A stretch of DNA of 42,176 nucleotides, taken from Saprospiraceae bacterium. Its GTDB lineage: Bacteria; Bacteroidota; Bacteroidia; Chitinophagales; Saprospiraceae. Shown here piece by piece: positions 1,409-42,121 of the stretch. The stretch lies in assembly GCA_043744475.1 (NCBI GenBank), contig JAYTUR010000962.1, positions 1-42,176 of the forward strand. The letters run 5' to 3'. A program made the position numbers and the translations under genes. Numbering within the stretch: position 1 is the stretch's first letter; every line of letters starts with the position of its first letter. The notes beneath the pieces are model-generated. The model searched no databases. It was not told the origin of the DNA and was given only the letters and a program-made list of their open reading frames with translations.

Positions 1409-4400
1409 TTATCCAACCCTCCGCACATTCTTCCTGTCAAAATTCTCGTCCGTCACAAGTAAATATTCGGTCTTACCAAATTTGACCCGCCCGTCTGTTC
1501 CTGCGGTTGGGTTAAACTCAAAACCCATGTATTTGCAGTAGAGCCGTACCTTTTCTTTGATGCGCTTTTCATCCATGTACTTTTTGTCATTCGGGAATGC
1601 ATCGGTGTAATCAATCAACACTTTCCGTTTTTCAACCGCCAAGTTGCGATAACATTGTGGGTCGTTGTTGAAAGGGTCACCATCTTCATCTGCACTAAAA
1701 TAGAGCTCGGCAAACTCCAAGAAATTCTCTCCTATTTCCTGTCTCAATTTGCGTTTTTCTAAGTCCGCGGTCGGTATCGTGTATTTGTTCAAGTCGGGAA
1801 ATTTCAAGTAGGTTTGGATGCACGTCGCCATAAAGTTGTAGAAGCGATTCCATTCCTCGTAATCCCATTCATTGAACATCAAGCGTCCGAAAGTATCCTG
1901 CGGAGTGCGAGCTGCATTGAAGTAATCTGAAAAACCAAGTAGGTATTGGCGGCGCATCGTCGAGTTGTCCGAGCCGCGTATCGCGTGATTGGTACTGAAG
2001 ATGAATTTTGGTGCAGGAATATTGAAGCGGCGTTGCCCTTTTTGATTGACCTCTACGCCCCGCGTGATTTGACTAAAAAAGTGTTCAAAATCCAAATTGA
2101 CACGGCAATCATCAAAAACAAGAATATTGGTACGTTCATCAACCCCATCGTAGATGTGTGGGTCTTCGGCGATGTTGCGCTTTTTGCCATCAATCACGAC
2201 CGTCGGCATCAGGTGTTCAAACATCGTGGCGTAAATGGATTTGCCAGAACCGCCCTGTGATTTGCCGACTTCGCTTTCGATGCCGTCCATCGCAATAATT
2301 GCCTTCATTTGGGCTTTGTTGCGATACTCATGCAACACATACCCTGCGGCAATCATTTTGCAAACGACGTGGGTAATGAGGTCTTGGCGTTCCTGCGCGG
2401 TCAATAACTCGCCGCCATCAGAGCGCGGAACGATGACATCGCGCCCATTTTCGCCTTTCTGCATCACTTCATTTTTGCGCCACCAAAAGTTTGAGGTGGC
2501 GAGCATGAATTGATACATATCGGTTTTCTTGCCCTCCTCAGATGTTTGAATTGACCACCCCTCAGTATCACCGCCTTTGACCCGCGAGATGCTTACCAAA
2601 GGCTTCGCCAAAAGCGACGGTTCAAAATTGATTATTTTGTCCGCCCAGATGGTTTTTGGTAATTCCGAAAGCGGATGCTCCTCGATGCCATCAGCCGTTA
2701 TCTTCCAATATTTTTTAGGAAAATAGAGGTATTGCGCTTCCTTTTCAGGTTCTGAAAATTCAGGCGCAGTGTAGTACATATTTGAGAGCTTATCGGGTCC
2801 GAGATACTGTGTGCCGCCTTTCAAAATCATATTTAATACCCCAATTTCGCCCAAATCCTCTGTGAAGGCTTTGATGAATTGCTGAATGCGGTGGTGGTCA
2901 ACCTCTTTCACAACCTTCCCTTCAGTGCGAATCATGCGGTATTTGTTCTTGCCCAAATCATAAAGCCCAAATCCACGATTCCTAAGAAATTGAAGACAAT
3001 TGTAATAATTGAAAGATAATGCTTCGCGCATACCTGTGCGGGTCGGTACTTCTTCGATTGTCCAATACTTTTCATACTCGAGTATTTTGTCCACCATCTC
3101 AAACCGCGCGCCGCCTTCCGCTTCTTCGTTCCAAGTCCAACGCTGTTTGTTGTACACAAATTCGCGGCGCAATTTGAGCGCGTCTTTATGAAAATCTAAA
3201 AACGATTGGGCATTGTGGAGATGCCAATGTTCGTAGATTTTTTGCGGCGACGTGAGCGTGATTTCATGCACATTCACATACTGCCCTTTGCCCTCGCGGT
3301 CAATCCGTGCGCGCTCAAAATCGGCTTCGAGTTCGATTTCTTTACCCAAAAATTGATGTACTAAAAGGTCATCCGCACCTTTCAGGACAACATCTTTACC
3401 GTAGGCAAAAAAGATGCGCAGTTCAATCCCTGCATTCTTATAACCATAGAAATAATCGCGAAATTTGACAACCGCAGAGGCAAAGGTTTTTGGTCGCCAA
3501 TCCACGTTATCCTCGTTTTTTGACAAACCTTGCCAATCTGAATCTAACAAAAACACAACGTTTTTAACCTCGCACCGCTTCAAAAGCATCTCAAGCTGCG
3601 ACGACATCCCCTCAAAAGTCAAATTATGAATACCGCCGATGCCGACAGTTTGCAAGCCGTGCAGCGTCATTTTGTCCGCTTTTTTTTCCCCCTCAGTAAC
3701 GTAGAGGGTTTCAAAAGTTTGGTGCGAGCTGTACGCCGCAATGATGGCGTTGGGCAACCAAAGCTGTGAACTGGACCGCGATGGGCTTTGGTACTTCATC
3801 GGTTTCCCTGCTTTCGACTTGTGCAATTCTGGATTTTGCCACCGCACCCGAAAATACCGTTTTGTTTTCCCCTTGGCATCGTTGTACATGACCGCCTCAC
3901 CTTTTAGATCCAGGTAATTCAATATCATGTCGTCCCCGGCGTTCAGGTTAAACATTTCGTTGACGCTGCCTTGCTCATAGCGACTGCGCTCTATAACTTT
4001 GCCACTGCCAATTTTCTCATTCCACTTGACCGCATCGGCAGGAATACCCGAAGCGAGCAACTGTAAATCCCTAAACGGCTTCTTTGAAACGGTACTTTTC
4101 ATCACATCACTTCCTTCAGTATCGTTGCCCAAATCGACGTTGAATTCACGCGCCACAATTTTGAGCGCATCAGGATAACTCAAATCCTGTGTTTTCATCA
4201 GAAAGTCAATCGCACCTATGCCGCCTTCGTCACATTTCCAGCATTTCCAAATATCCTTTGTCGCGCTCACCGAAAATTTCCCTTTTGCGCCGCACAATGG
4301 ACAATCCGCCACATGGTCGACACCCTTTTTTTTGAAAGCAAGGTACTTCGATGCGACTTCGATAAGTCCACGCTCCGCAGCTTCCTTGATGCGTTGTGCC

Positions 4401-6704: not shown

Positions 6705-6902
6705 TTATTCATTGTTCACCTCCTTAATTTCTACAACAACTTGCCATTTTTTCACAACCCCTCGTTTTTTGTGGTCGCGCGAAATATGCAAGTCTTTTTT
6801 CGTTAACTTCCGCATTGTGAGAAAATCGGGTAACATTGTATCGCCATCTTCAAATTCAACCGCAAGCATATAGCCAAAGGCGGGTATTTTCAGCTTACTC
6901 AT
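6705..6902 (-). CDS. Small hypothetical protein (65 aa; a longer 84-aa form would start at 6959)
   Basis: ATG 6900..6902 is embedded in AATGAGTAA, overlapping the stop of the upstream 731-aa gene (coupling geometry). Confidence 0.45.
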   Translation of the reverse strand: MSKLKIPAFGYMLAVEFEDGDTMLPDFLTMRKLTKKDLHISRDHKKRGVVKKWQVVVEIKEVNNE

Positions 6903-9090
6903 TGCTCCCCTCCTTACCTCTTTTATCAATGAGGAAGAAAAACGCTTCCCGATTGTCATAAGGTAGTTTGAATTTTTCGCACAGGTCTAAACGCCCCGTT
7001 GCAGCCTTCGCAAATTCATCCAATACCGACTTATTGACCGCTATTTTTTGACGCAATGACATGTATGCCTCATCGCACAGTTTGAATATGTTTTTTGCGA
7101 CGGTGCCGTCATTTGCCTGTGAGTTATTGAAATGACTTTCGCCATATTTTAATATTTTTCCCCTCAGCAATTCCAGTTTATCGTCGAGTAAACTTGTTGT
7201 TTTTTCGGCTTTCGGCTGTGGCACAGTGTCTATGGGCTGTGGCACAGTTTCGGGTTTTTCTCCCGTTTTTACTGAGGGGGTAGGGTTGAGTCGTTTTTTC
7301 GATATTTCTAAGGCTAAATCCTTGATTGGTTGGAGCGGCACGAGCGACAAGGAATTTTTAATATAGATGACCATCGGGTTTATACTGTCACAGGCATCCA
7401 CCCAATCTGTGTAATCGTATGCCTCACGCGGGTCGTAGGAGCATGAGCAAACATCTACCTGACCTTGCATATTGTATTCTGAAAACCGCTTTGTAGGCTT
7501 TTCTTCCGTTTTTACTGAGGGGGTAGGGGCAGTCGCCGCAATGGGTTGTTTCCCCGCTTTTTGGCGATACCAGTTGACGACTTGACCAAACAGAAAAACC
7601 ATATCATCACCTTCAATGACTTTTTTCGTAATGACATCAGAAGTGATACGCATCAACATTGCTGGGTCTTGTTCAAAAAACTGAATGGATTGTGCATAGT
7701 AATCTTCAAAAACGCCCTTCATATTGTTATCCGTAAGGGTTTTGTGAAATAGACCCCAATCAGAGCTATCGGATTCCGACATGTTTATTGCTTTTAAGTA
7801 ATCAAGTGGATTGCTGAATTTTTGCGCCCCGAGTGCGACGTATTCAGCCGCATAACCCGCCGTGAGTGCCGATAGGTACATTTGCAGATTTATCGCCGTG
7901 TTATCGAAATTATTGGATTGCACGACGTGCCCAAGCGAGTTGAGTTCTCCATTTACCTCTATTGATATTTTTGAAATCTCAATATTTGCATTTTGCCCCA
8001 ATGCTTTCATGTACCCGAATGCGCACAGATGTCCCGCTTCGTGTACGGCAATACGCTCTGTTGAGAAGTTGAGAAACGAACCTGATAATGTACCCACGGA
8101 TAGGGGCGTTGAGGTTGCTCCTGTGGGTGTGATTGCTGAAAAAACATCTTGCTTCAAATTGTCAATCAATCGCTCAAATTTGCCGACGTTAAAACTGGCT
8201 TGATAGAGCGATAATAAAAGTCCTACGATAAACATCAAAGCTGTTGCACCCACCGACAACCACATAAAGAGGGTAGCCCATGCCGCCGCATGTTTTTTGA
8301 ACAAATCCATATTAAAATCATTGGCTTTGCCTACGGCTGCAATACTTGCCCCTGCGGTTGGGTCATTTAGGACGTTTATTTTTGCCTGTCGCTGGGCATC
8401 TAATTTGATGTCGTATTTAGACATTATGTTATTTTTTTTCGACTTATATTCCGATTCATATTGTCGTTCCTTACTTTTTAGCGCATTTTGTCGTTCAACC
8501 CATGTGCCACCCATGCCAAAAGGAGCTAAAGCAGCCGATTTTTTCTTAACACCGCCTAATTCATCGTCTCTATCCTTCTGTATTTTGGCAATCTCCGCGT
8601 CTATGGCGGCTATTTTTTTGAGTTGTGCATTATCGGCATTTGATTGCAATGCCGAAACATCTGTTATAATAGGTCGTTCTGTCACTGATTCTGCGGCAGA
8701 ATCTCGAAGAAAGAGCGTGACACCGACCGTCACAATAATTAAAAAAACACAAAGCGCACCTGAAATCCAAAGCAGCCCTTTAAATGCCCGTTGTTTTTTT
8801 TGTGGCAAAATCTTCCAATCACCTGCAATGATTGACGTTAGGGTAGGCACAAGGATTATAAAAATGCCACCCTCCACGCAATAGAGGTAAATACCGATAA
8901 TTATTGCCGTTAAAGCACCCGCGACATAGGGACTTTCTAAACCCTTCATAAATATCATAAACAGAGGGATGGATAAAACAGCGGCGGAATCAAGTCCCGT
9001 TATAAATGCCGTGCCCTTAAAACAATTGAGTAGGAAACTATAAACCTCTCCATTGTCTCCTTTTTTGAATAAATCTTTGAAAATTTCCAT
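6895..9090 (-). CDS. Multi-pass membrane protein with a coiled coil and an FtsH (M41)-like HEAGH zinc-peptidase domain but no AAA domain
   Basis: Hydrophobic helices lie in aa ~25-125 and ~270-295. Peptidase motif is ERIAVHEAGHLCAFGY...LGHVV...LTAGYAAEYVALG. Two PTPSVKT(E/G)EKP repeats are encoded by dispersed-motif copies. Confidence 0.65.
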   Translation of the reverse strand: MEIFKDLFKKGDNGEVYSFLLNCFKGTAFITGLDSAAVLSIPLFMIFMKGLESPYVAGALTAIIIGIYLYCVEGGIFIILVPTLTSIIAGDWKILPQKKQRAFKGLLWISGALCVFLIIVTVGVTLFLRDSAAESVTERPIITDVSALQSNADNAQLKKIAAIDAEIAKIQKDRDDELGGVKKKSAALAPFGMGGTWVERQNALKSKERQYESEYKSKKNNIMSKYDIKLDAQRQAKINVLNDPTAGASIAAVGKANDFNMDLFKKHAAAWATLFMWLSVGATALMFIVGLLLSLYQASFNVGKFERLIDNLKQDVFSAITPTGATSTPLSVGTLSGSFLNFSTERIAVHEAGHLCAFGYMKALGQNANIEISKISIEVNGELNSLGHVVQSNNFDNTAINLQMYLSALTAGYAAEYVALGAQKFSNPLDYLKAINMSESDSSDWGLFHKTLTDNNMKGVFEDYYAQSIQFFEQDPAMLMRITSDVITKKVIEGDDMVFLFGQVVNWYRQKAGKQPIAATAPTPSVKTEEKPTKRFSEYNMQGQVDVCSCSYDPREAYDYTDWVDACDSINPMVIYIKNSLSLVPLQPIKDLALEISKKRLNPTPSVKTGEKPETVPQPIDTVPQPKAEKTTSLLDDKLELLRGKILKYGESHFNNSQANDGTVAKNIFKLCDEAYMSLRQKIAVNKSVLDEFAKAATGRLDLCEKFKLPYDNREAFFFLIDKRGKEGSNE
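7270..7280 (+). repeat. Dispersed motif TACTGAGGGGG
   Basis: Exact 11-mer in CDS 6895..9090, encoding PTPSVKT. Confidence 0.95.
7513..7523 (+). repeat. Dispersed motif TACTGAGGGGG
   Basis: Exact 11-mer in CDS 6895..9090, encoding the second PTPSVKT. Confidence 0.95.
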
Positions 9091-9776: not shown

Positions 9777-10181
9777 TTATCTTTGTTTCACGGCTTTCGG
9801 ACAATCGCATTGCCATTTAGGTGCAATGAAAATGGTCAATCTCTCTCGTTCGCCTAACTGTGCCAATATTAACCTGTCTTTTGCGATGCCTTTGCCTATG
9901 AGTTCACCGTCTTTGTCAATCACGTATGTCCATATTTCGTTTGTTGCAATTGGTAAATTATCGAACTGATAAAAGCCCTCTGCGACCTTAAAAGGTGGAA
10001 ACTCTGCCGATGGGCATTGACTGCCGATTGTGTACCATTGCACAGGATTAGACCTTGTGTTTAATCTTGCGAATGTGAACACTCTTGTTGCTTCATCGCA
10101 AGAGTTGAATACTTGTACTGTTTGCGCCTTTGCGCTAAACCAAGCTGCGAATAGGGCAGCGGTAATAATAGATTTTCTCAT
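9777..10181 (-). CDS. Exported hypothetical protein (134 aa)
   Basis: N-terminal signal-like MRKSIITAALFAAWFSAKAQ. Confidence 0.65.
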   Translation of the reverse strand: MRKSIITAALFAAWFSAKAQTVQVFNSCDEATRVFTFARLNTRSNPVQWYTIGSQCPSAEFPPFKVAEGFYQFDNLPIATNEIWTYVIDKDGELIGKGIAKDRLILAQLGERERLTIFIAPKWQCDCPKAVKQR

Positions 10182-10255
10182 TTTTGAAATATTATGTTAT
10201 GGAATTATTGATAAAACAACTATTTGACACACAAATAGTTATGACTTACTTTTGT

Positions 10256-10295
10256 AAAAAAAAAGGGGCTTAAAACAAATACCCTCGAAAGCCCC
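10256..10295 (-). terminator. Intrinsic terminator directly after the Cro-like gene
   Basis: Stem GGGGCTT (10265..10271) / AAGCCCC (10289..10295), then U9 on the minus strand (10256..10264). Confidence 0.75.
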
Positions 10296-10353
10296 CTTAA
10301 ACGAAAAAACAGCATATTTATAGAAAATCAAAACCGATACTAATGAGAAGAAA

Positions 10354-10590
10354 CTACACCGCTTCAACAGCTTCAATGAAGCCCTCTAAATCTGTCAATT
10401 TCTCTCTTGCCACCTCTGCGGCAATTATTTTAATCATTTTCCTTTTTTCGGCACTGACACCGATTGTTGTGTTTTGATAGATGCCCAGCGTTGCACCTAC
10501 CGTTTGGGGCGAAGATTCCGACCGTTTAGCAATTTCGCTCAATATGCCAAATGGAACATTGATTTTTTTGCTATTTGTTTTTTTATTCAT
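10354..10590 (-). CDS. Small HTH protein, Cro-like by position (first gene of the leftward early operon)
   Basis: Divergent from the XRE repressor. HTH-like ILSEIAKRSESSPQTVGATLG. Followed by a strong terminator. Confidence 0.6.
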   Translation of the reverse strand: MNKKTNSKKINVPFGILSEIAKRSESSPQTVGATLGIYQNTTIGVSAEKRKMIKIIAAEVAREKLTDLEGFIEAVEAV

Positions 10591-10598
10591 TTTCCTTT

Positions 10599-10630
10599 AT
10601 TATATTTGTCTAACGTGATACAAATATAAT
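10599..10630. promoter_or_regulatory. Operator/promoter palindrome of the genetic switch
   Basis: 11-bp perfect inverted repeat ATTATATTTGT (10599..10609) / ACAAATATAAT (10620..10630). Each arm contains TATATTTG (TAnnTTTG) pointing toward the other arm. Confidence 0.5.
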
Positions 10631-10712
10631 TCCATATTTCTGATAATTCCAAATTAATGGAAAATAATTTTCATAATTCTGTAATTATTTTTTTTGACTA
10701 AATCAATTTAAG

Positions 10713-11129
10713 GTGAATATCAATGACCGACTAAGAGAACTTATCAAAACATTAGGACTCAATAAGACTCAACTGGCAAAAGAGACGGGTTTAAATTACA
10801 CGACCTTAGATAGTGTTATCAATGAAAAAACAAACAATAAACCCTCTTTTGATACACTTTCAGCAATTTTATTAACGTATAGGCAAGTTGACCCTGATTG
10901 GTTGATTCATGGAATAGGAGATGTTTTCAGGAAAATGGAAATAACTAATTCAGAAAAATGGAATTTACAGAAAAATGAATTAAACGAAGACCCCCCTCAG
11001 TACAAACCCGATGCGAAGCCAAAACAAGACGAGCTCTCCGAAAAGCGATACGAGCTTTTATTGATTGAGATGGAAGCGATAAGGAAGCGGGTAGAAATGG
11101 TGGAGAAGGCATTGAAGCAGAAGAAATAA
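10713..11129 (+). CDS. XRE-family HTH repressor (CI-like)
   Basis: LRELIKTLGLNKTQLAKETGLNYTTLDSVINEK. GTG start as in the track. C-terminal coiled coil. Divergent from the Cro-like gene. Confidence 0.8.
   Translation: MNINDRLRELIKTLGLNKTQLAKETGLNYTTLDSVINEKTNNKPSFDTLSAILLTYRQVDPDWLIHGIGDVFRKMEITNSEKWNLQKNELNEDPPQYKPDAKPKQDELSEKRYELLLIEMEAIRKRVEMVEKALKQKK
10992..11002 (-). repeat. Dispersed motif TACTGAGGGGG
   Basis: Exact 11-mer in the repressor CDS (DPPQYK). Confidence 0.95.
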
Positions 11130-12208: not shown

Positions 12209-13303
12209 ATGATGAGAAAAAAAAATTTGCCTAAAATATACCCTTTGTCAAGGGATTTAAAAAAAGAGTGGTTTGTCTCTTGGCGTTTTTTAGATGAGAA
12301 CGGCTTTTCTAAGCTGGTAAAGGAGAGGATTCCTAATTTAAACACAATTGCTGAAAGGCTCGCCTACGGAGAAAAAATCAGTAAAAATTTATTAACGCAT
12401 GGCTGGAAACCAAAGGAGAAAAGTCCTTTTGCAGGTTCGGTGGATGCGATGAAGTTGGCTTTTGATTGGCTTCATGCTCGAAAGGGTGTGGTGCGACGGA
12501 AGACTTTTTTTACTTATCAGTCGCATTTGAAGAATTTAGATGCATTTGTGAAGTTGAAAAAATTTCGGTCGGTGAACTTGACATTGGCAGAGGCTTTCTT
12601 GGTGTCGCTTACTGAAGGGGGTAAGGCGGCGGCGACGGTCAATGCACATCGAAGGACTTTTAATCAGGCGTTTAATTTTTGTGTTCGTAAGAAAACGATG
12701 TCGAAAAATCCTTTTGAGGGGACTGAAAGGGTATCGGGGAGTTCGGATTCTAAGATGCCTTTTACAAAGACTCAAGCGCATTTTGTGAAGTCAAAAATGC
12801 CTGAAGAATTGTGGGCGGCGGCGCGGTGGTTGTATTACTGCTTTATAAGACCGGGTGAGCTGCGACAGATTCGGGTAGGGGAGTTGGATTTGGATGAAGG
12901 TAAAATATTGGTTAAGTCTGATATTTCTAAGAATCGAAAAAGTGAATGGGTGATTGTTCCCGCCGCTTTGATGAAGGAACTTGCGCCGCTTTGTCTATAT
13001 CAATATGACCCGACTTGGTTTTTGATTGGTGAAAATGGGTTGCCTTCTGAAACTACTGTGGGTTTCAACTTTTGGTCAAATCGGCATTTGAAGTTACTGA
13101 AGGCTTTGAACTTTGATACGAAACAATATTCGCTTTATAGTTGGAAACATTACGGTGTTTATAGGTTGGCAAAAGCAACTAAAGATTATAGGGCGGTGCA
13201 GCTTCAATGCCGGCATCACTCGTTGGACATGACTGTGCGCTACTTGAGGAAGATTGGTATCATGGAGTATAATAATATTCGTGATGATTTTCCAGAGGTG
13301 TGA
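12209..13303 (+). CDS. int: Tyrosine site-specific integrase
   Basis: SAM-like N-terminal domain. Catalytic-domain signatures CFIRPGELRQI, WKHYGVYRLA and CRHHSLDMTVRYL (H-x-x-R ... Y). Confidence 0.9.
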   Translation: MMRKKNLPKIYPLSRDLKKEWFVSWRFLDENGFSKLVKERIPNLNTIAERLAYGEKISKNLLTHGWKPKEKSPFAGSVDAMKLAFDWLHARKGVVRRKTFFTYQSHLKNLDAFVKLKKFRSVNLTLAEAFLVSLTEGGKAAATVNAHRRTFNQAFNFCVRKKTMSKNPFEGTERVSGSSDSKMPFTKTQAHFVKSKMPEELWAAARWLYYCFIRPGELRQIRVGELDLDEGKILVKSDISKNRKSEWVIVPAALMKELAPLCLYQYDPTWFLIGENGLPSETTVGFNFWSNRHLKLLKALNFDTKQYSLYSWKHYGVYRLAKATKDYRAVQLQCRHHSLDMTVRYLRKIGIMEYNNIRDDFPEV

Positions 13304-13319
13304 CTTAATATGTAGGGGC

Positions 13320-13356
13320 AAAAAAAGCCGATACTGACGGTATCGGCTTAACTTTT
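13320..13356. terminator. Bidirectional terminator between the convergent int and antirepressor-like genes
   Basis: A7-GCCGATAC-tgacg-GTATCGGC-TTAACTTTT. Confidence 0.75.
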
Positions 13357-13376
13357 GGAAATAGGGTAGTGGGCAG

Positions 13377-13919
13377 TTAGGAAAGATTTAAACTCAATTG
13401 CCCCTGCACCAATTCAATATCCATCTCCTTCAATGTCTTTGTAATGTGCTTCTCCTTTTTTTTCAGTTCCTGGATCCGTTGGTATTCGGCACTTTCCAAA
13501 AGTTGGGCATCCAATTTCTCTTGTAATTCCAAAATTTCCAATTGCGTTTCTGTTTTTTCGTTCAAGGCAGTCATGCGTCCTGTCATTGCGCCGTGGAAAT
13601 GGTTGAATAAAATTTCATAGCACTTACGCTTATAAAGTTTTAATTCGGCACTATCAGAACGGATTGAGAAGAGCCAACCATAAACAAATTTTTCGGGCAA
13701 ACAAACCATGTTTCGGAGCTTCCCGTCAGCAGCAACTATTGGCTGTTCAGCCAATAGTTCACTTAAAATTTCATCCTCTTTAATGTTCTTAAAAGTGCGT
13801 GTATACTCAATATTTAGAGCATCACAAATAGGCTTAATAGCAACCCACCATGTACCATCGGCAAGCAAAATCGATATGCGTTTGCCATTAAATTCTAAAA
13901 ACTTTTCTATGTTTTTCAT
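13377..13919 (-). CDS. Antirepressor-like protein (Bro-N / P22 AR N-terminal-like domain + coiled coil)
   Basis: FNGKRISILLADGTWWVAIKPICDALNIEYTRTFKNI...KFVYGWLFSI. The track start at 13937 is TTG; the first ATG is at 13917..13919. Confidence 0.7.
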   Translation of the reverse strand: MKNIEKFLEFNGKRISILLADGTWWVAIKPICDALNIEYTRTFKNIKEDEILSELLAEQPIVAADGKLRNMVCLPEKFVYGWLFSIRSDSAELKLYKRKCYEILFNHFHGAMTGRMTALNEKTETQLEILELQEKLDAQLLESAEYQRIQELKKKEKHITKTLKEMDIELVQGQLSLNLS

Positions 13920-13978
13920 CTCTGAAATTTTATGCAACTATCCCGTATTCAGGGGATAGTTGCGGTGATAAAAATAGG

Positions 13979-14215
13979 TTATTTTACTGAGGGGTGTAGC
14001 GATAGATAATTGTATTTGTACAAAGCAGACTCCAACAAAATGCGAATACCCCAAAACGATTCCTGTCGTTCAATTTCGTTTTTAGGTTCTCGATAGTGAA
14101 TGTGCAAATCGCACAAGGCTAATGCCGCTTCTAATTGATTTTGGATTTGGCAAGATACGTCGATGGACGTAATGTCGCAAAAGGGATGGACGGGAGTGGA
14201 ATTTTGTTCTTTCAT
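13979..14215 (-). CDS. Small hypothetical protein (78 aa) downstream of structured-RNA cassette A
   Basis: ATG ORF ending HPSVK* within a dispersed-motif copy. Confidence 0.5.
   Translation of the reverse strand: MKEQNSTPVHPFCDITSIDVSCQIQNQLEAALALCDLHIHYREPKNEIERQESFWGIRILLESALYKYNYLSLHPSVK
13985..13994 (+). repeat. Dispersed motif TACTGAGGGG
   Basis: Exact 10-mer covering the last codons of ORF 13979..14215. Confidence 0.9.
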
Positions 14216-14255
14216 CGTGGTGGATGCTTTTAAAGATTAATGAAATTTGAATTAT

Positions 14256-14326
14256 AAAAAAAACGGCTGTCCCACATCCACCACAGATGCCTTTAGCACG
14301 GCAAAGCCGAGAAAGGAGGAACAGCC
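14256..14326 (-). terminator. Intrinsic terminator ending RNA A
   Basis: Stem 14318..14326 / 14265..14273 (9 bp, one G-U valid only in the minus-strand RNA), then U8 (14256..14263). Confidence 0.6.
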
Positions 14327-14420
14327 TAACCCAAAAACATTGGGCTTATCTTGAATCTAAACAGACTTTTTTTAAATAGGAAAGCCTAAACCGTACTAAC
14401 GCTATCATGTGGTGGACGAT
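14256..14420 (-). ncRNA. Candidate ~165-nt structured RNA / attenuator leader A
   Basis: Runs from the twin promoter to the terminator. Long-range complementarity between 14408..14416 and 14277..14285. Shares the UAGG-loop-CCUA hairpin with copy B. Confidence 0.45.
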
Positions 14421-14457
14421 ACGACAAAGATAGAAATAATCATGCCACAAAAACAAG
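14421..14457 (-). promoter_or_regulatory. Twin promoter, copy A
   Basis: 37/37 identical to 26059..26095. Minus strand reads CTTGTTTTTGTGGCATGATTATTTCTATCTTTGTCGT, with the TATCTTTG -7 box and upstream TTG/TTTG. Confidence 0.6.
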
Positions 14458-14474
14458 TGTGTTTGGAAATAAAT

Positions 14475-14508
14475 AAAAAAAGCCCCCTCAGTAACGAGAG
14501 GGCTTTTT
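14475..14508. terminator. Bidirectional terminator containing a dispersed-motif copy
   Basis: A7-GCCCCCTC-AGTAAC-GAGAGGGC-T5 (hairpin 14482..14503). Confidence 0.75.
14483..14493 (-). repeat. Dispersed motif TACTGAGGGGG
   Basis: Exact 11-mer forming an arm/loop of the terminator at 14482..14503. Confidence 0.95.
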
Positions 14509-14515
14509 CTTAATT

Positions 14516-15118
14516 TTAATCTTTTGTTTTCTTCTTTCTCAAAAAATCAAAGAATCTCTTTTTCTTTTTAATGGGTTTTGTCTTAACCGCATCGTCGACC
14601 TTCAAAATGTAATTTGGATTTTTTACGGCGAGCGTTATGTCGCCTTCTTGATACAATGCCTGTCCTATTATCTCTTTTCCCGCAGGTCTTATATTATAGC
14701 TGTTTGGCAAAATGCCCTGCACCGTGGTTTTTGGACGACTGGCAATGTCGGTTTTCACGTCCGATTCTATTGCCTTGGCATCGGTGAGCGTGCCTGTGGC
14801 TTGAACTTGCAGCTGTTTTGCGGCGACTTGCAATCCGAGAGCTTGTTGTAATAGCTGGTCTTGAACCGTGCTAAAACGAGCTGTGTCCGTTATCACTCGG
14901 ACGCGAAAAATGATAGCAGTTTCGCCTTTGTTACTCACGCTGTCGACGCCTAATTTTTCGACGATGACGCCTGAATCTCTATTTGAGACATACACTTTCG
15001 TTGTTGTAGCGAAGTCCATAATTGAGCGAATGCCCAATCGGTTGTTAGCCACTTTTGTTTGCGCCTGTGCGCTGAAAATGATGCCTAAAAAGGCAATAAC
15101 AAAGAATGTTTTTTTCAT
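14516..15118 (-). CDS. Exported hypothetical protein (200 aa)
   Basis: Signal-like MKKTFFVIAFLGIIFSAQAQ. Lys-rich C-terminus. Confidence 0.65.
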   Translation of the reverse strand: MKKTFFVIAFLGIIFSAQAQTKVANNRLGIRSIMDFATTTKVYVSNRDSGVIVEKLGVDSVSNKGETAIIFRVRVITDTARFSTVQDQLLQQALGLQVAAKQLQVQATGTLTDAKAIESDVKTDIASRPKTTVQGILPNSYNIRPAGKEIIGQALYQEGDITLAVKNPNYILKVDDAVKTKPIKKKKRFFDFLRKKKTKD

Positions 15119-15126
15119 TTTTTAAT

Positions 15127-15849
15127 TTATTTTATTTTTATTATCCAAAAATCGTCACACATAGAACTCAATGCAACAGAAAAAGGCATATAAAAAAGCC
15201 CTTCATGCCCCCAATTTTTACCCCAACTGTTTACACAAGTAAAAAATTTTGTATGGCAATTATATCCTATAATATGCACTGCATGACCTCCTACTAACTT
15301 TTCATTCTTCTTTGGCTTAGGCATAAGCCCTGTTTTTTCAATTATTGAGCCTTCAAAACTTTCATATACATCAAAACCAAAAAGAACTGGATTTCCATTA
15401 AAAAGCGTTTGACATATATCATTTTTTGTTTGATTAACTCTTTCATATTGTTCTATGCAATGCAATAACCCATCTTTATAGCAATTTATAGTAGGCATAA
15501 CTTTAAATTTACTTATATTATATGGGTATAAAACTTCATTACAAATACCAGTTTTGTTTAAACTTTTAACGCTTTGTCTAATGGTACTTCCTGCATCTTC
15601 ATTAATTGTGCCATCTTCTTTACGCTCGTTATAATACAGAAAGAGAGGCGAACCGTCAAAGCCTGTTAAATGGCGATAAACCCTCGCTGCACTAATAGCG
15701 GTGCAACTACCAATTTCCAGTTGGTCATATATTTCAGTTTTGCTTGTGTCAATTTCATAAGACTTTGGATAGTCGTATTTTTTAGGAGAGGTAATTATGA
15801 AATCTCGTTCATCTACTCTCTGTCTTTCCCATCCATAAATTCTTTGCAT
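15127..15849 (-). CDS. Papain-family (C1) cysteine peptidase, no signal peptide
   Basis: Catalytic signatures QLEIGSCTAISA (Cys), GGHAVHIIGY (His) and VNSWGKNWGHEG (Asn/Trp). Markedly AT-rich relative to the neighbouring genes. Confidence 0.85.
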   Translation of the reverse strand: MQRIYGWERQRVDERDFIITSPKKYDYPKSYEIDTSKTEIYDQLEIGSCTAISAARVYRHLTGFDGSPLFLYYNERKEDGTINEDAGSTIRQSVKSLNKTGICNEVLYPYNISKFKVMPTINCYKDGLLHCIEQYERVNQTKNDICQTLFNGNPVLFGFDVYESFEGSIIEKTGLMPKPKKNEKLVGGHAVHIIGYNCHTKFFTCVNSWGKNWGHEGLFYMPFSVALSSMCDDFWIIKIK

Positions 15850-25481: not shown

Positions 25482-25518
25482 CAAAGTTCGACAGACACCA
25501 CCCCCTCAGTATGGACAT
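25482..25518 (-). promoter_or_regulatory. Late promoter-like module M5 (upstream of tape measure)
   Basis: Minus strand ATGTCCATACTGAGGGGGTGGTGTCTGTCGAACTTTG. Same 36-nt GTCC-to-TTTG frame, but the 11-mer is inverted and shifted 5 nt. Confidence 0.5.
25501..25511 (-). repeat. Dispersed motif TACTGAGGGGG
   Basis: Exact 11-mer inside module M5. Confidence 0.95.
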
Positions 25519-25549
25519 AAAAAAAGCCACACCGATTATCGGTATGGCT
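25519..25549 (-). terminator. Terminator preceding M5
   Basis: AGCCACACCGAT / ATCGGTATGGCT stem (one mismatch), then U7-8 on the minus strand. Confidence 0.7.
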
Positions 25550-25576
25550 TCATATAGTTTCAATGACAAAAATAAG

Positions 25577-25843
25577 TTATGCTACCGAGGGGGTCGCAGA
25601 TAAGGTATCTAATTTTGATAAAAGCCAGTGGTATTGTCTTTGCAGTTGAAAAGGAATGGTGTCACACGTCTCATGGGTTTCGGCTTTCTGCCACGCGTAA
25701 TCCAGAACATGAAAAGTAAAGTCGTCAAAATCTACTTCGGTAAGAAAATCCTCCACCGCCGACAAAATAATCTCTTTTTGGTCAGCATTGAGTTTGGAAA
25801 AATCGTAGCGTTCGCCACACATTAGAAATGGGTTCTTTTTCAT
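25577..25843 (-). CDS. Small hypothetical protein (88 aa) downstream of structured-RNA cassette B
   Basis: ATG ORF ending TPSVA* over a one-mismatch motif copy (TACCGAGGGGG, 25583..25593). Confidence 0.5.
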   Translation of the reverse strand: MKKNPFLMCGERYDFSKLNADQKEIILSAVEDFLTEVDFDDFTFHVLDYAWQKAETHETCDTIPFQLQRQYHWLLSKLDTLSATPSVA

Positions 25844-25888
25844 CTTAGGTTTGCAATTTAGATGATTAAAAATAGGATTTTAGAAATG

Positions 25889-25971
25889 CAAAAAGGCGCG
25901 TATGCCATTCCGCTGCAAACCACCTACAAGTAGGTATGCGTTTCCAAAACGCTCGGAATGACACACGCGCC
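25889..25971 (-). terminator. Intrinsic terminator ending RNA B
   Basis: 18-bp stem 25954..25971 / 25895..25912. Its two non-Watson-Crick positions are G-U in the minus-strand RNA (A-C on the other strand). Followed by U5. Confidence 0.7.
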
Positions 25972-26058
25972 TCCTTTTATAGAAACTGTATGTACTGGAT
26001 AGGCATAAAAAAAGCCTACTTCTTCAAGTAAGCTATTGCCTACTTGTATGTGGTTTGC
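25889..26058 (-). ncRNA. Candidate ~170-nt structured RNA / attenuator leader B
   Basis: The 5' segment 26039..26058 pairs 19/20 with 25915..25934, which lies inside the terminator loop. Confidence 0.45.
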
Positions 26059-26095
26059 ACGACAAAGATAGAAATAATCATGCCACAAAAACAAG
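26059..26095 (-). promoter_or_regulatory. Twin promoter, copy B
   Basis: 37/37 identical to 14421..14457. Similarity (~75%) continues into the upstream terminator. Confidence 0.6.
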
Positions 26096-26108: not shown

Positions 26109-26141
26109 AAAAAAAACGCCCCCTCAGTAATGAGGTAGGCG
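26109..26141 (-). terminator. Terminator after the KilA-N gene, containing a dispersed-motif copy
   Basis: Hairpin CGCC-CCCTCA-GTAA-TGAGG-TAGGCG (26117..26141), then U8 on the minus strand (26109..26116). Confidence 0.75.
26119..26129 (-). repeat. Dispersed motif TACTGAGGGGG
   Basis: Exact 11-mer forming an arm of the terminator at 26117..26141. Confidence 0.95.
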
Positions 26142-26736: not shown

Positions 26737-26865
26737 TGTTCTAAAAATTTATATTGTAAATGAAAAGCAATATCGCTTTCAGGCACAAACATATTATAAT
26801 TAATTTTAATAAACAAATTATTTATAATATTTTTAAATAAAATGTTTAAAATATTTTCTGGACAT

Positions 26866-26895
26866 AAAAAAAGCGACCCCTCCGTAAGGCATCGC
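26866..26895 (-). terminator. Weaker terminator-like hairpin after the gp10-like gene
   Basis: GCGACC..GG..TCGC with a one-mismatch motif copy in the loop. U7 on the minus strand, then GTCC. Confidence 0.45.
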
Positions 26896-33075: not shown

Positions 33076-33085
33076 TTTTTTTGCT

Positions 33086-33122
33086 CAAAGTTCCGTTTTT
33101 ACTGAGGGGGTATTTCGGACAC
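33086..33122 (-). promoter_or_regulatory. Late promoter-like module M4
   Basis: Minus strand GTGTCCGAAATACCCCCTCAGTAAAAACGGAACTTTG, followed by the leader AGCAAAAAAA and then ATG. Confidence 0.55.
33100..33110 (+). repeat. Dispersed motif TACTGAGGGGG
   Basis: Exact 11-mer inside module M4. Confidence 0.95.
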
Positions 33123-33151
33123 AAAAAAAGCGACCCCGTTCCAAAGGTCGC
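33123..33151 (-). terminator. Terminator preceding M4
   Basis: GCGACC-ccgttccaaa-GGTCGC, then U7 on the minus strand. Confidence 0.7.
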
Positions 33152-35956: not shown

Positions 35957-35970
35957 CTTTTATTTTTGCT

Positions 35971-36007
35971 CAAAATTGCGGATTTACGGAGGGGGTGTTT
36001 CGGACAT
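35971..36007 (-). promoter_or_regulatory. Late promoter-like module M3
   Basis: Minus strand ATGTCCGAAACACCCCCTCCGTAAATCCGCAATTTTG, 35/37 identical to M2. Confidence 0.55.
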
Positions 36008-36011
36008 TCAG

Positions 36012-36046
36012 AAAAACAAAAAGGGTACACTTCGCAAAGCGCACCC
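36012..36046 (-). terminator. Terminator preceding M3
   Basis: GGGT..ACCC hairpin (36023..36046), then UUUUUGUUUUU on the minus strand. Confidence 0.55.
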
Positions 36047-40139: not shown

Positions 40140-40176
40140 CAAAATTGCGGATTTACTGAGGGGGTGTTTCGGACAA
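40140..40176 (-). promoter_or_regulatory. Late promoter-like module M2 (upstream of the head operon)
   Basis: Minus strand TTGTCCGAAACACCCCCTCAGTAAATCCGCAATTTTG. The ATG follows 4 nt later. Confidence 0.55.
40154..40164 (+). repeat. Dispersed motif TACTGAGGGGG
   Basis: Exact 11-mer inside module M2. Confidence 0.95.
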
Positions 40177-40178
40177 TG

Positions 40179-40203
40179 AAAAAAGCCCCGCTTTTGGCGA
40201 GGC
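40179..40203 (-). terminator. Terminator preceding M2
   Basis: GCCTCGC-caaaa-GCGGGGC (one G-U), then U6 on the minus strand. Confidence 0.65.
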
Positions 40204-42050: not shown

Positions 42051-42086
42051 CAAAATTACGATGACACCCCTTTTTATTTCGGACAA
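42051..42086 (-). promoter_or_regulatory. Late promoter-like module M1 (upstream of endolysin)
   Basis: Minus strand TTGTCCGAAATAAAAAGGGGTGTCATCGTAATTTTG. TAATTTTG is a TAnnTTTG box, 30 nt from the ATG. Confidence 0.5.
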
Positions 42087-42087
42087 C

Positions 42088-42121
42088 AAAAAAAGCGACC
42101 CTCTCAGTAAAGGGTGGTCGC
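42088..42121 (-). terminator. Terminator preceding M1
   Basis: Hairpin GCGACC..GGTCGC (42095..42121) with a motif variant in the loop. U7 on the minus strand. Confidence 0.65.

Follow-up and report, generated by a model that had tools for sequence, protein, structure and literature searches.

A three-segment leader RNA ahead of anti-repressor and small genes in temperate phages of Bacteroidota, apparently representing a large and undescribed class

The RNA regulators closest to the element considered here were described in phages P1 and P7, in P4 and in the Salmonella prophage Gifsy-1. A published account describes c4 as an RNA of about 77 nucleotides (nt) with three stems and two recognition loops, a' and b' (PMC5320573). 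Within the immI regions of P1 and P7, c4 is co-transcribed with icd and the anti-repressor gene ant and pairs with the ribosome-binding region of icd, with target copies lying upstream, and the c4 regions of the two phages are separated by a few matched base differences. The CI RNA of P4 pairs with seqA upstream and with seqC downstream, and IsrK of Gifsy-1 is a small RNA with its own terminator, read-through of which yields an mRNA for orf45 and an anti-repressor-like protein (anrP). Here we analyse two cassettes, A and B, on a contig of a Saprospiraceae bacterium (assembly GCA_043744475.1, contig JAYTUR010000962.1, positions 1 to 42,176; this whole stretch is the window referred to below), in each of which one internal segment of a predicted RNA is complementary both to the 5' end of the transcript and to the start region of a downstream open reading frame (ORF). 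Both apparently belong to a large, undescribed class of leader RNAs in temperate phages of Bacteroidota.

Cassette A is read on the minus strand, and its three complementary segments are termed seg1, seg2 and seg3 in their order along the RNA. Its parts, together with the two genes that follow it, are:

14475..14510, minus strand: upstream intrinsic terminator, found by a terminator scan, which closes ORF 14516..15118
14421..14457, minus strand: promoter block, identical at 37 of 37 positions to 26059..26095
14432..14425, minus strand: -7 box TATCTTTG (TAnnTTTG), with TTG/TTTG upstream
14256..14420, minus strand: leader or small RNA, predicted at about 165 nt, from the transcription start to the end of U8
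14391..14418, minus strand: seg1, the 5'-terminal target copy, with core CGUCCACCACA at 14418..14408 and UCCACCACA at 14416..14408
14326..14318, minus strand: terminator 5' arm GGCUGUUCC
14299..14309, minus strand: small inner hairpin CGGC-UUU-GCCG within the terminator loop, the counterpart of hairpin H of other members
14275..14286, minus strand: seg2, the antisense segment CUGUGGUGGAUG, with UGUGGUGGAUG at 14285..14275, ending 1 nt ahead of the terminator 3' arm
14273..14265, minus strand: terminator 3' arm GGGACAGCC, followed by G and by the U8 run at 14263..14256
14215..14226, minus strand: seg3, the target CAUCCACCAC(GA), with CAUCCACCAC at 14226..14217, then G, then the AUG at 14215..14213
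13979..14215, minus strand: ORF A, 78 amino acids (aa), AUG 14215..14213
13377..13919, minus strand: anti-repressor-like (Ant-type) gene with a P22_AR_N / Bro-N domain (P22_AR_N E = 1e-18), 59 nt past ORF A

The -7 element recognized by the primary sigma factor of Bacteroidetes has the consensus TAnnTTTG / TTTG (PMC7366714), and transcription of cassette A is predicted to start near 14419-14421. The RNA folds at -56.5 kcal/mol (z = -4.4), a stability reached by none of 200 shuffled sequences. Its terminator stem of 9 base pairs (bp) includes one U-G wobble that is possible only in the minus-strand RNA. The minimum-free-energy fold contains a seg1:seg2 helix of about 25 bp with small bulges, the extended strand of seg1 pairing with 14301..14275, and seg2 is therefore not simply exposed in the terminator loop. 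The seg1 of this cassette also holds an AUG (14406-14408, minus strand) that opens an upstream ORF of 20 codons, i.e., the decoy copies the start region including the start codon. A conserved leader peptide was considered and rejected, since this upstream ORF is present in A and absent from B, and the equivalent triplet is mostly NCG elsewhere. Rejected as well was an operator shared with the repressor region: The window holds no further copy of the promoter block, and nothing similar occurs at 10180-10730.

Cassette B lies on the same strand, with the following parts:

26109..26141, minus strand: upstream terminator, after a KilA-N gene, with the same 3' half as in A
26059..26095, minus strand: promoter block, with the TATCTTTG box at 26070..26063
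25889..26058, minus strand: RNA predicted at about 170 nt from its fold and from homology to the leader of a related locus, L141
26058..26039, minus strand: seg1
25971..25954 and 25912..25895, minus strand: terminator arms, 18 bp with two wobbles
25952..25938, minus strand: inner hairpin
25934..25914, minus strand: seg2
25894..25890, minus strand: U-run
25844..25856, minus strand: seg3, UUGCAAACC, with its block at 25856..25848, ending 4 nt ahead of the AUG at 25843..25841
25577..25843, minus strand: ORF B, 88 aa, without a family match, AUG 25843..25841
25518..25550, minus strand: ORF B's own terminator, after which the tape-measure gene comes next

Here seg1 and seg2 form 19 of 20 possible base pairs, and among nested folds the 18-bp terminator is the one favoured (-67.5 kcal/mol, z = -6.4). 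Similarity between the two cassettes spans 58 nt at 91%, from the 3' half of the upstream terminator (TTACTGAGGGGGC in A, which with its U-run is part of the common block) to GTCGT, and ends exactly at the predicted transcription start. No similarity was found between ORF A and ORF B, and the twin cassettes are thus not a simple gene duplication. A scripted scan for the full set of features recovered A and B as the only three-way units in the window: A single phage has, behind identical promoters, two units that differ in address. The original prediction, which had been made for cassette A from the letters alone, placed the box, seg1, the arms, U8, seg2, seg3 and the AUG correctly, and its claims of an exact identity between the promoter blocks, of a wobble peculiar to the minus-strand RNA and of a second cassette with the same layout in unrelated sequence all stand. 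The three-way complementarity that it described is real; it understated the lengths of the seg1:seg2 helices, and its picture of seg2 as exposed by the terminator loop was too simple.

Anti-repressor homologues numbered 457, and about 215 loci around them (designated by L and a number) were taken from Logan/JGI contigs, IMG/VR, JGI metagenomes and GTDB genomes. We scored the full syndrome, i.e., a box, seg1 at the 5' end, seg2 before a U-run and seg3 at an ATG, on both strands, and obtained 67 distinct units, representing about 40 different RNAs, in 2.05 Mb of Bacteroidota prophage loci, as against four in the reversed-sequence control. The three-segment architecture is more than chance. These requirements for promoter, U-run and ATG, combined with contiguous-helix scoring, replaced RNAduplex on long windows, which was non-discriminating because non-cognate pairs scored equally; at low thresholds in AT-rich DNA the helix detector yields many false positives (5.7% under the null vs. 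11% observed at 9/9).

With unrelated sequences, the architecture was found upstream of ant homologues of 37-77% identity. At L003, a locus read by eye whose Ant is 68% identical, the same layout comprises a TATCTTTG box, a 5' segment, a terminator loop containing the complement of that segment, and, across the AUG of a 110-aa ORF preceding ant, a third copy. The units occur in genomes of Saprospiraceae, Chitinophagaceae, Flavobacterium, Bacteroidales, Mangrovibacterium, Thermophagus and Parasediminibacterium and in IMG/VR contigs, and two of the genomes are those of isolates (Parasediminibacterium paludis CECT 8010, of the Chitinophagaceae, and Thermophagus sp. OGC60D27). Promoters vary among these phages, and the RNA architecture persists. 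Different subfamilies cannot be aligned by MAFFT, and a covariance model of the 3' domain of one subfamily (R1) recovers that subfamily only, and neither A nor B; it follows that the class is defined by architecture and that a model built from A plus B would have little reach. This model did recover one locus that the scan had missed, L125, and its seg1, seg2 and seg3 then proved to match, which constitutes independent confirmation of the three-segment unit.

Sequence searches aimed at the cassettes themselves returned little. A blastn search of phage GenBank records with region 13300-15200 gave no match, and exact promoter 22-24-mers were absent from the IMG/VR, JGI metagenome and GTDB genome sets searched. 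At the gathering score, Rfam found nothing in the window or in 28 related loci, and at E <= 10 it returned only terminator-driven noise (PyrR, leader peptides, GibS). A conserved ligand- or tRNA-binding core of the riboswitch or T-box type was not found: Rfam gives no match, and the subfamilies share architecture, not sequence. Among open papers we found no description of such an element in Bacteroidota, in agreement with the earlier statement that none was known from phages of this group.

Some relatives have less. Immediately upstream of ant at L119 (2395-2495) and L058 (2385-2490) lies a two-part variant that consists of a AUUGUUAUAAGUU segment, a separate terminator hairpin and a complementary segment over the ant AUG, with no 5' copy found. 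L214 and L218 (both at 2440-2500; Ant identity 72-74%) have a short leader only, i.e., a TAnnTTTG box, one hairpin (GAAAGCGAUAUUGCUUUC) and a U-run, and L002/L087 and L086 have no leader RNA at all. That leaders near relatives of ant can be short or absent shows that the three-way unit is an exchangeable module and not a fixed part of ant.

The members share a common anatomy. In all 13 that were curated, a TAnnTTTG box stands 3-15 nt ahead of seg1, and the RNAs range from 128 to 236 nt. A long terminator stem surrounds a small hairpin, which has GGGUGAAAGUCCC or a similar sequence in several members, and seg2 follows this hairpin and ends, typically in ..GCA(G), 0-3 nt ahead of the 3' arm, with which it has no overlap. 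The 3' arm is followed by a U-run, and seg3 lies 20-50 nt beyond, beginning at the U of the AUG in nine of the 13; the full seg2:seg3 helix of L003 also begins there, its anchored block starting 8 nt downstream, and in A, B and L194 seg3 ends 1-4 nt ahead of the AUG. Segments 1 and 3 are identical at 6-12 of 12 positions, and seg1 usually contains no start codon, the triplet equivalent to AUG being NCG in eight of the ten members of one subfamily. All three segments always fall within one transcription unit. Downstream is ant itself (five units), a small ORF and then ant, or small unannotated ORFs about 600 nt beyond ant; seg3 stands at the start of a small ORF ahead of ant in cassette A, L003, L012, L141, L175, L216 and L217. 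The downstream small ORFs belong to no common family, and neither PHROG nor Pfam assigns any of them a known function. A 5' hairpin conserved in the ten-member subfamily (..ACAAGAGC AACA CUUGUUU..GUUGC; L058 3300-3335, columns 24-47 of the alignment A7 described below) can pair with the 3' half of seg1 and may act as a kinetic trap governing the access of seg2 to seg1.

Covariation was tested in three ways. For the 13 curated members we took 12-nt blocks anchored at the outer end of each helix, and cognate blocks were paired in 283 of 312 cells, compared with 155 +/- 15 when seg2 was permuted among loci, and none of 20000 permutations reached the observed 283; because the detector selects for pairing, which weighs against taking such counts at face value, they are inflated, and this test measures cognate specificity rather than the existence of the helices. 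Pair counting in the same anchored blocks put the two helices at 91% and 90% paired, with double changes at all 12 pairs of each, and slid controls at 28-48%; the observed values were reached in none of 500 shuffles.

Two further tests are free of this bias. The first is an alignment made by MAFFT only (A7), of ten homologous leaders with a mean identity of 76%. Its scaffold is conserved (TACCTTTGCAnnGU.., AUCCGUGAAGGUGUCGUAUAGCCGUAAUGCUAUACA.., ..ACAACACCCACUCACGGAUUUUUU), and variation is concentrated in seg1, in seg2 and in codons 2-4 of the ORF, i.e., seg3. All nine pairs of seg1:seg2 and all seven of seg2:seg3 are 100% paired, with changes on both sides at six and at four of them, respectively. 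The terminator stem (13 pairs) is likewise 100% paired and the inner hairpin (seven pairs) 94%, with four double changes, as compared with 28-50% in slid controls. The second test concerns L216 and L217, the closest Ant relatives with the unit, which are 87% identical over 198 columns. From L216 to L217, seg1 changes CU to AC (GCUCAC to GACCAC), seg3 undergoes the same 2-nt change (AUGCUCAC to AUGACCAC), and seg2 shows the complementary change of AG to GU (GUGAGC to GUGGUC); the terminator stem has additional compensating changes. The claim that pairing is kept by covariation, made for A and B, therefore holds far beyond that pair, and a covariance-type test does turn up further examples with compensatory changes.

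Across the helices, G-U pairs number 29 and A-C mismatches seven, an excess that points to constraint on the RNA of the transcribed strand and not on DNA. This bears on the possibility that the segments are repeats acting as DNA, with seg1 and seg3 direct and seg2 inverted, or with flanking copies of the motif CCCCCTCAGTA as recombination sites of an invertible or mobile cassette. Both cassettes are indeed flanked by inverted copies of this motif (13985/14483 and 25583/26119), of which the window has 25. We consider recombination sites extremely improbable: Accepting G-U while avoiding A-C makes sense only if the constraint falls on the RNA of one strand, the position of seg3 is tied to the AUG, covariation extends to the terminator and the inner hairpin, and most members of the family are in loci without the motif.

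What these pairings do is suggested by how translation begins in this phylum. Bacteroidetes lack initiation led by a Shine-Dalgarno sequence and use A-rich, unstructured leaders instead (PMC7366714), so that pairing over the AUG and the adjacent upstream nucleotides should block initiation. We are highly confident that the three pairings are functional RNA interactions that control the downstream start codon. In the model that we propose, a host-type promoter (TAnnTTTG) would start an RNA whose first nucleotides are seg1. Most transcripts would stop at the long terminator hairpin, giving an RNA of 130-170 nt that displays seg2 in a loop with the small hairpin, and read-through transcripts would carry seg3 covering or abutting the start codon of the next ORF (in A, the small ORF and then the anti-repressor gene). 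Pairing of seg2 with seg3 would block translation initiation. Being a copy of seg3 without the start codon, seg1 would compete for seg2: When the two pair within one molecule, seg3 would be free and the gene on, and when seg1 is removed, trapped or occupied by the seg2 of another molecule, seg2 would be free to silence seg3, a state in which termination would perhaps be favoured too. We consider this full model reasonably likely; in it the RNA is an antisense regulator encoded on the strand of its target, acts on translation and perhaps also on termination, and can have its specificity reprogrammed.

The short RNA may also act on other molecules. The seg2 of a resident RNA would then pair with the seg1 and seg3 of newly made transcripts. 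Such an RNA would be an immunity-like repressor with an address of its own, in the manner of c4 in P1/P7 and CI RNA in P4, and would keep ant and the small ORFs off in lysogens and, on infection, once a first burst is over. The two cassettes would then serve as orthogonal channels driven by a single promoter. Because the three segments are the only hypervariable part of the scaffold and change together, we infer that the terminated RNA is also trans-acting, and the presence of two addresses under one promoter in one phage argues for the same reading. We give action in trans about an even chance.

A rival explanation is a purely cis-acting riboregulator. In that case the leader would toggle between seg1:seg2, with the start free and perhaps less termination, and seg2:seg3, with the start masked, with temperature, a helicase, an RNA-binding protein or RNase cleavage at the 5' end as the trigger, and the short RNA would be a by-product. 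The constant location of all three segments within one transcription unit is as this explanation expects, as is the success of seg1 over seg3 in most predicted folds of the read-through RNA, the behaviour of an internal competitor; the capacity of the conserved 5' hairpin of A7 to hold part of seg1 suggests a folding pathway. Private specificities would be superfluous in a cis-acting switch, yet within a scaffold that is 76-87% identical only the three segments vary, and one phage carries two differently addressed units behind the same promoter. Nor is there a conserved ligand- or protein-binding core across subfamilies. We judge a cis-acting element alone to be rather unlikely.

Several points weigh against the antisense model that we prefer. 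In nested folds of 13 read-through RNAs, seg2 was placed on seg1 in nine and on seg3 in two. Since seg2 prefers seg1 in these folds, the intact leader is probably 'on' in cis, and silencing needs seg1 to be removed, trapped or titrated; put otherwise, the intact RNA may be self-inhibited with a default state of 'on', and action in trans would then depend on processing or a kinetic trap. If the RNA is processed, the terminator domain of 70-95 nt is a candidate for its mature form. What the sequence comparisons establish is the anatomy, the three pairings centred on seg2, their covariation and strand specificity, and the link to ant and small ORFs; the transcription start, the short RNA, read-through, the efficiency of termination, the direction of regulation and action in trans are predictions. 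The seg1:seg2 helix would be at most a putative antiterminator, since seg2 shares no nucleotides with the terminator arms. This helix and the terminator stem, which lie next to each other at the 3' arm and are both conserved, may coexist as a pseudoknot. Hypervariability could also arise by drift with compensation in an element that acts purely in cis. Finally, the regulated small ORFs are without known function, and cassette B is not linked to ant. The lack of overlap between seg2 and the 3' arm and the joint conservation of the two helices likewise weaken, in its strict form, the attenuator that the original prediction had offered as one option; its alternatives of a translational switch, a stable small RNA or both, acting at the RNA level on the minus strand, fit the evidence.

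Set against the systems introduced at the outset, the element works like c4, CI and IsrK, and it is not a member of their RNA family: The Rfam C4 family (RF01695, which covers the P1/P7 c4, P4 CI and IsrK types) has no match in either cassette even at E <= 10. The resemblance to P1 and P7 extends to a regulator RNA on the same strand as its target, upstream of it and in the same transcription unit; to a target located where translation begins in a small ORF ahead of the anti-repressor gene (in cassette A); to a second target copy upstream of the regulator, a1/b1 in P1, seqA in P4 and seg1 here; and to matched changes that reset specificity between relatives, as between L216 and L217. There is no homology to c4 in sequence or structure. 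In P1 and P7, c4 is released by RNase P and blocks a Shine-Dalgarno site, exerting Rho-dependent polarity, whereas the units here have a single recognition segment, inside an intrinsic terminator hairpin with one small hairpin, and mask the start codon itself.

With P4 the units have in common a three-part geometry (seqA/seqB/seqC), in which an internal segment is complementary to sites upstream and downstream on the same transcript, and an RNA derived from the operon under its control. The P4 RNA is a processing product that causes premature transcription termination of replication genes. The present units instead have a start codon as their downstream site, carry a predicted terminator of their own and would govern ant and small ORFs, and Rfam gives no match. 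IsrK ends at its own Rho-independent terminator ahead of a read-through mRNA for a small ORF and an anti-repressor, an arrangement that the units here are predicted to share. Alternative pairings in its read-through RNA decide translation of the small ORF, and its short form can act in trans on the long form, as the model proposes for the present class. Unlike the RNAs considered here, it activates translation by displacing an inhibitory helix and has no 5'-terminal copy of the start region, and both its phylum of origin and its structure are different. These three precedents are closer than those named in the original prediction, which had missed them. A more distant parallel is offered by plasmids pT181, pIP501 and pAMbeta1, in which an antisense RNA binds the nascent 5' leader and decides between a terminator and a competing fold. 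These share with the present class specificity groups that evolve by matched changes; their regulators are encoded on the opposite strand, whereas here regulator and target lie on the same strand behind the same promoter.

The likeness to P1 raises the possibility that the small ORF is harmful and the RNA its antidote, in a toxin-antitoxin-like or growth-arrest module that stabilises the prophage or aborts superinfection. The product of icd in P1 blocks cell division; the genes regulated here are small, diverse and unannotated, and a double control by terminator and start-codon masking is typical of toxic products. Yet five units control ant directly, with no small ORF in between, the small ORFs are unlike the hydrophobic peptides of type I toxins, and a regulator on the same strand and same transcript departs from known type I systems. 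A toxin-antitoxin function is accordingly improbable.

The analogues that had been proposed, the lambda PR'-6S-tR' unit with Q and the put RNAs of HK022, share with the cassettes only a short terminated transcript just after a phage promoter, and use neither complementarity to a downstream start codon nor a 5' decoy. HK022 put RNA has two stems and acts on RNA polymerase, with no pairing to downstream mRNA, and the conserved pairing to the start codon sets the present units apart from it by description. In a processive antitermination system of either type, a phage factor or RNA would modify RNA polymerase to pass the terminator, and a fully conserved promoter block before a terminated transcript of about 165 nt, twice in one phage, recalls such an arrangement; the many terminators inside the structural gene cluster suggest that some antitermination may exist in this phage. 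The genes adjoining the units upstream are a 200-aa ORF without a family match and KilA-N, neither of them Q-like (the search for Q covered these neighbours). No late operon stands behind the units, which precede ant or small accessory ORFs: ORF A and ant lie beside the integrase, and ORF B has its own terminator. Antitermination would also leave seg3 at the start codon and the triple covariation without a role, and promoters differ between phages while the RNA architecture persists. We regard it as very improbable, and the analogy, to which start-codon masking is foreign, as misplaced.

The window comprises an entire contig, from a temperate tailed phage of the Bacteroidota type, and almost all of its genes are on the minus strand (including those for a DnaG-type primase protein, Clp protease, tape measure, tail fibre and a papain-like peptidase), and a short plus-strand module encodes a helix-turn-helix repressor and a tyrosine integrase. 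Cassette A lies at the final end of the minus-strand gene train, after the 200-aa ORF (14516..15118), and is followed by ORF A, the anti-repressor-like gene, a terminator and the convergent integrase gene; with an Ant-type gene beside the integrase, its position is immI-like. ORF A, which has no relatives but itself among 5.8 billion proteins, sits where P1 and Gifsy-1 have their small ORF ahead of ant (icd and orf45, respectively). Between its stop codon and the AUG of ant is an 11-bp hairpin (GCAACUAUCCC..GGGAUAGUUGC; window 13925-13960, minus strand), which may add a layer of control or coupling. Cassette B lies between the KilA-N gene, for whose protein an exact-sequence look-up gave no match, and ORF B. 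The likely start codon of the tape-measure gene (ATG at 25517) touches the U-run of the strong terminator after ORF B, and terminators also precede several other structural genes, which suggests that those genes need read-through or promoters of their own.

Other repeated sequences occur around the cassettes. ORFs A and B terminate, as does the small ORF ahead of ant in L086, in ..PSV(K/A) or ..PSV (window 13955-13995 and 25553-25593; L086 2355-2375), because a CCCCTCAGTA motif overlaps their last codons, and a block of about 40 nt past this motif (ATAACYTATTTTTRTCA..AACTAT) is conserved between A and B despite their unrelated ORFs. The CCCCCTCAGTA 11-mer, whose inverted copies flank the cassettes, reaches its count of 25 at <=1 mismatch, as compared with 0.9 expected, and is present on both strands, 12 copies at gene edges or between genes and 13 within ORFs in sense and antisense (e.g., 367-377, 3688-3698, 7270-7280, 13985-13995, 14483-14493, 25501-25511, 26119-26129, 33100-33110 and 40154-40164). 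Among about 218 other loci it is found only in the closest Ant relatives, L086, L001, L214, L215 and L218, and in L218 (2305-2345) its two orientations form the arms of a terminator hairpin. The motif could be a lineage-specific protein-binding or uptake-like signal. One copy lies in a 33-nt stretch that occurs twice, at 7253-7285 and 7496-7528, 243 nt apart and 94% identical, inside ORF 6895..9090, which points to an internal protein repeat of 81 aa that also bears the motif. Elsewhere on the minus strand, a recurrent intergenic unit (33076-33140, 35960-36015 and 40140-40184, with variants at 26855-26879 and 42077-42108) is made up, in this order, of a hairpin terminator and its U-run, (A/G)UGUCCGAAAYA, CCCCCUCAGUAAA, 7-9 nt and TTTG, 20-30 nt before the next ATG. 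Judged by its sequence, it looks like a phage-specific promoter or regulator site without the usual -33 element; a 23-mer of its motif had no match in IMG/VR.

Control of the anti-repressor decides whether a prophage stays silent, and for phages of Bacteroidota, the predominant ones in viromes of the gut and of many environments, scarcely anything is known of this control or of RNA regulators in general. The element described here is a concrete and widespread RNA mechanism, with about 40 distinct RNAs in only about 2 Mb sampled, and illustrates how a phylum that does without Shine-Dalgarno sequences could gate translation, through masking of the start codon itself. Its hypervariable triple match is a natural experiment in the evolution of specificity. 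With this class, same-strand antisense immunity of the P1/P4 type would have been invented a second time and independently. Two cultured hosts carry the unit, and the predictions made here are therefore directly testable in P. paludis CECT 8010 (L175 1927-2058, contig NZ_JBHSDC010000018.1, with a predicted RNA of about 130 nt) and Thermophagus sp. OGC60D27 (L199 2175-2410, about 235 nt). Their small size and modular build, in which the scaffold is conserved and the address can be swapped, make the units attractive as orthogonal regulators for engineering of Bacteroides.

A bolder possibility, which we advance tentatively and would not yet count on, is that temperate phages of Bacteroidota carry a modular, reprogrammable RNA 'address' system, in which a conserved terminator scaffold bears a 10-20 nt segment matching the first codons of the gene and a 5' decoy, and in which changing 2-4 nt in all three places would create a new orthogonal channel of immunity or control. 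Such a system would form an RNA layer of heteroimmunity or kin discrimination over anti-repressors and small, possibly counter-defence genes, and would have evolved independently of the enterobacterial c4/CI RNAs. If this is true, the addresses would be directly usable as a set of orthogonal translational regulators in Bacteroides, which lack Shine-Dalgarno sequences.

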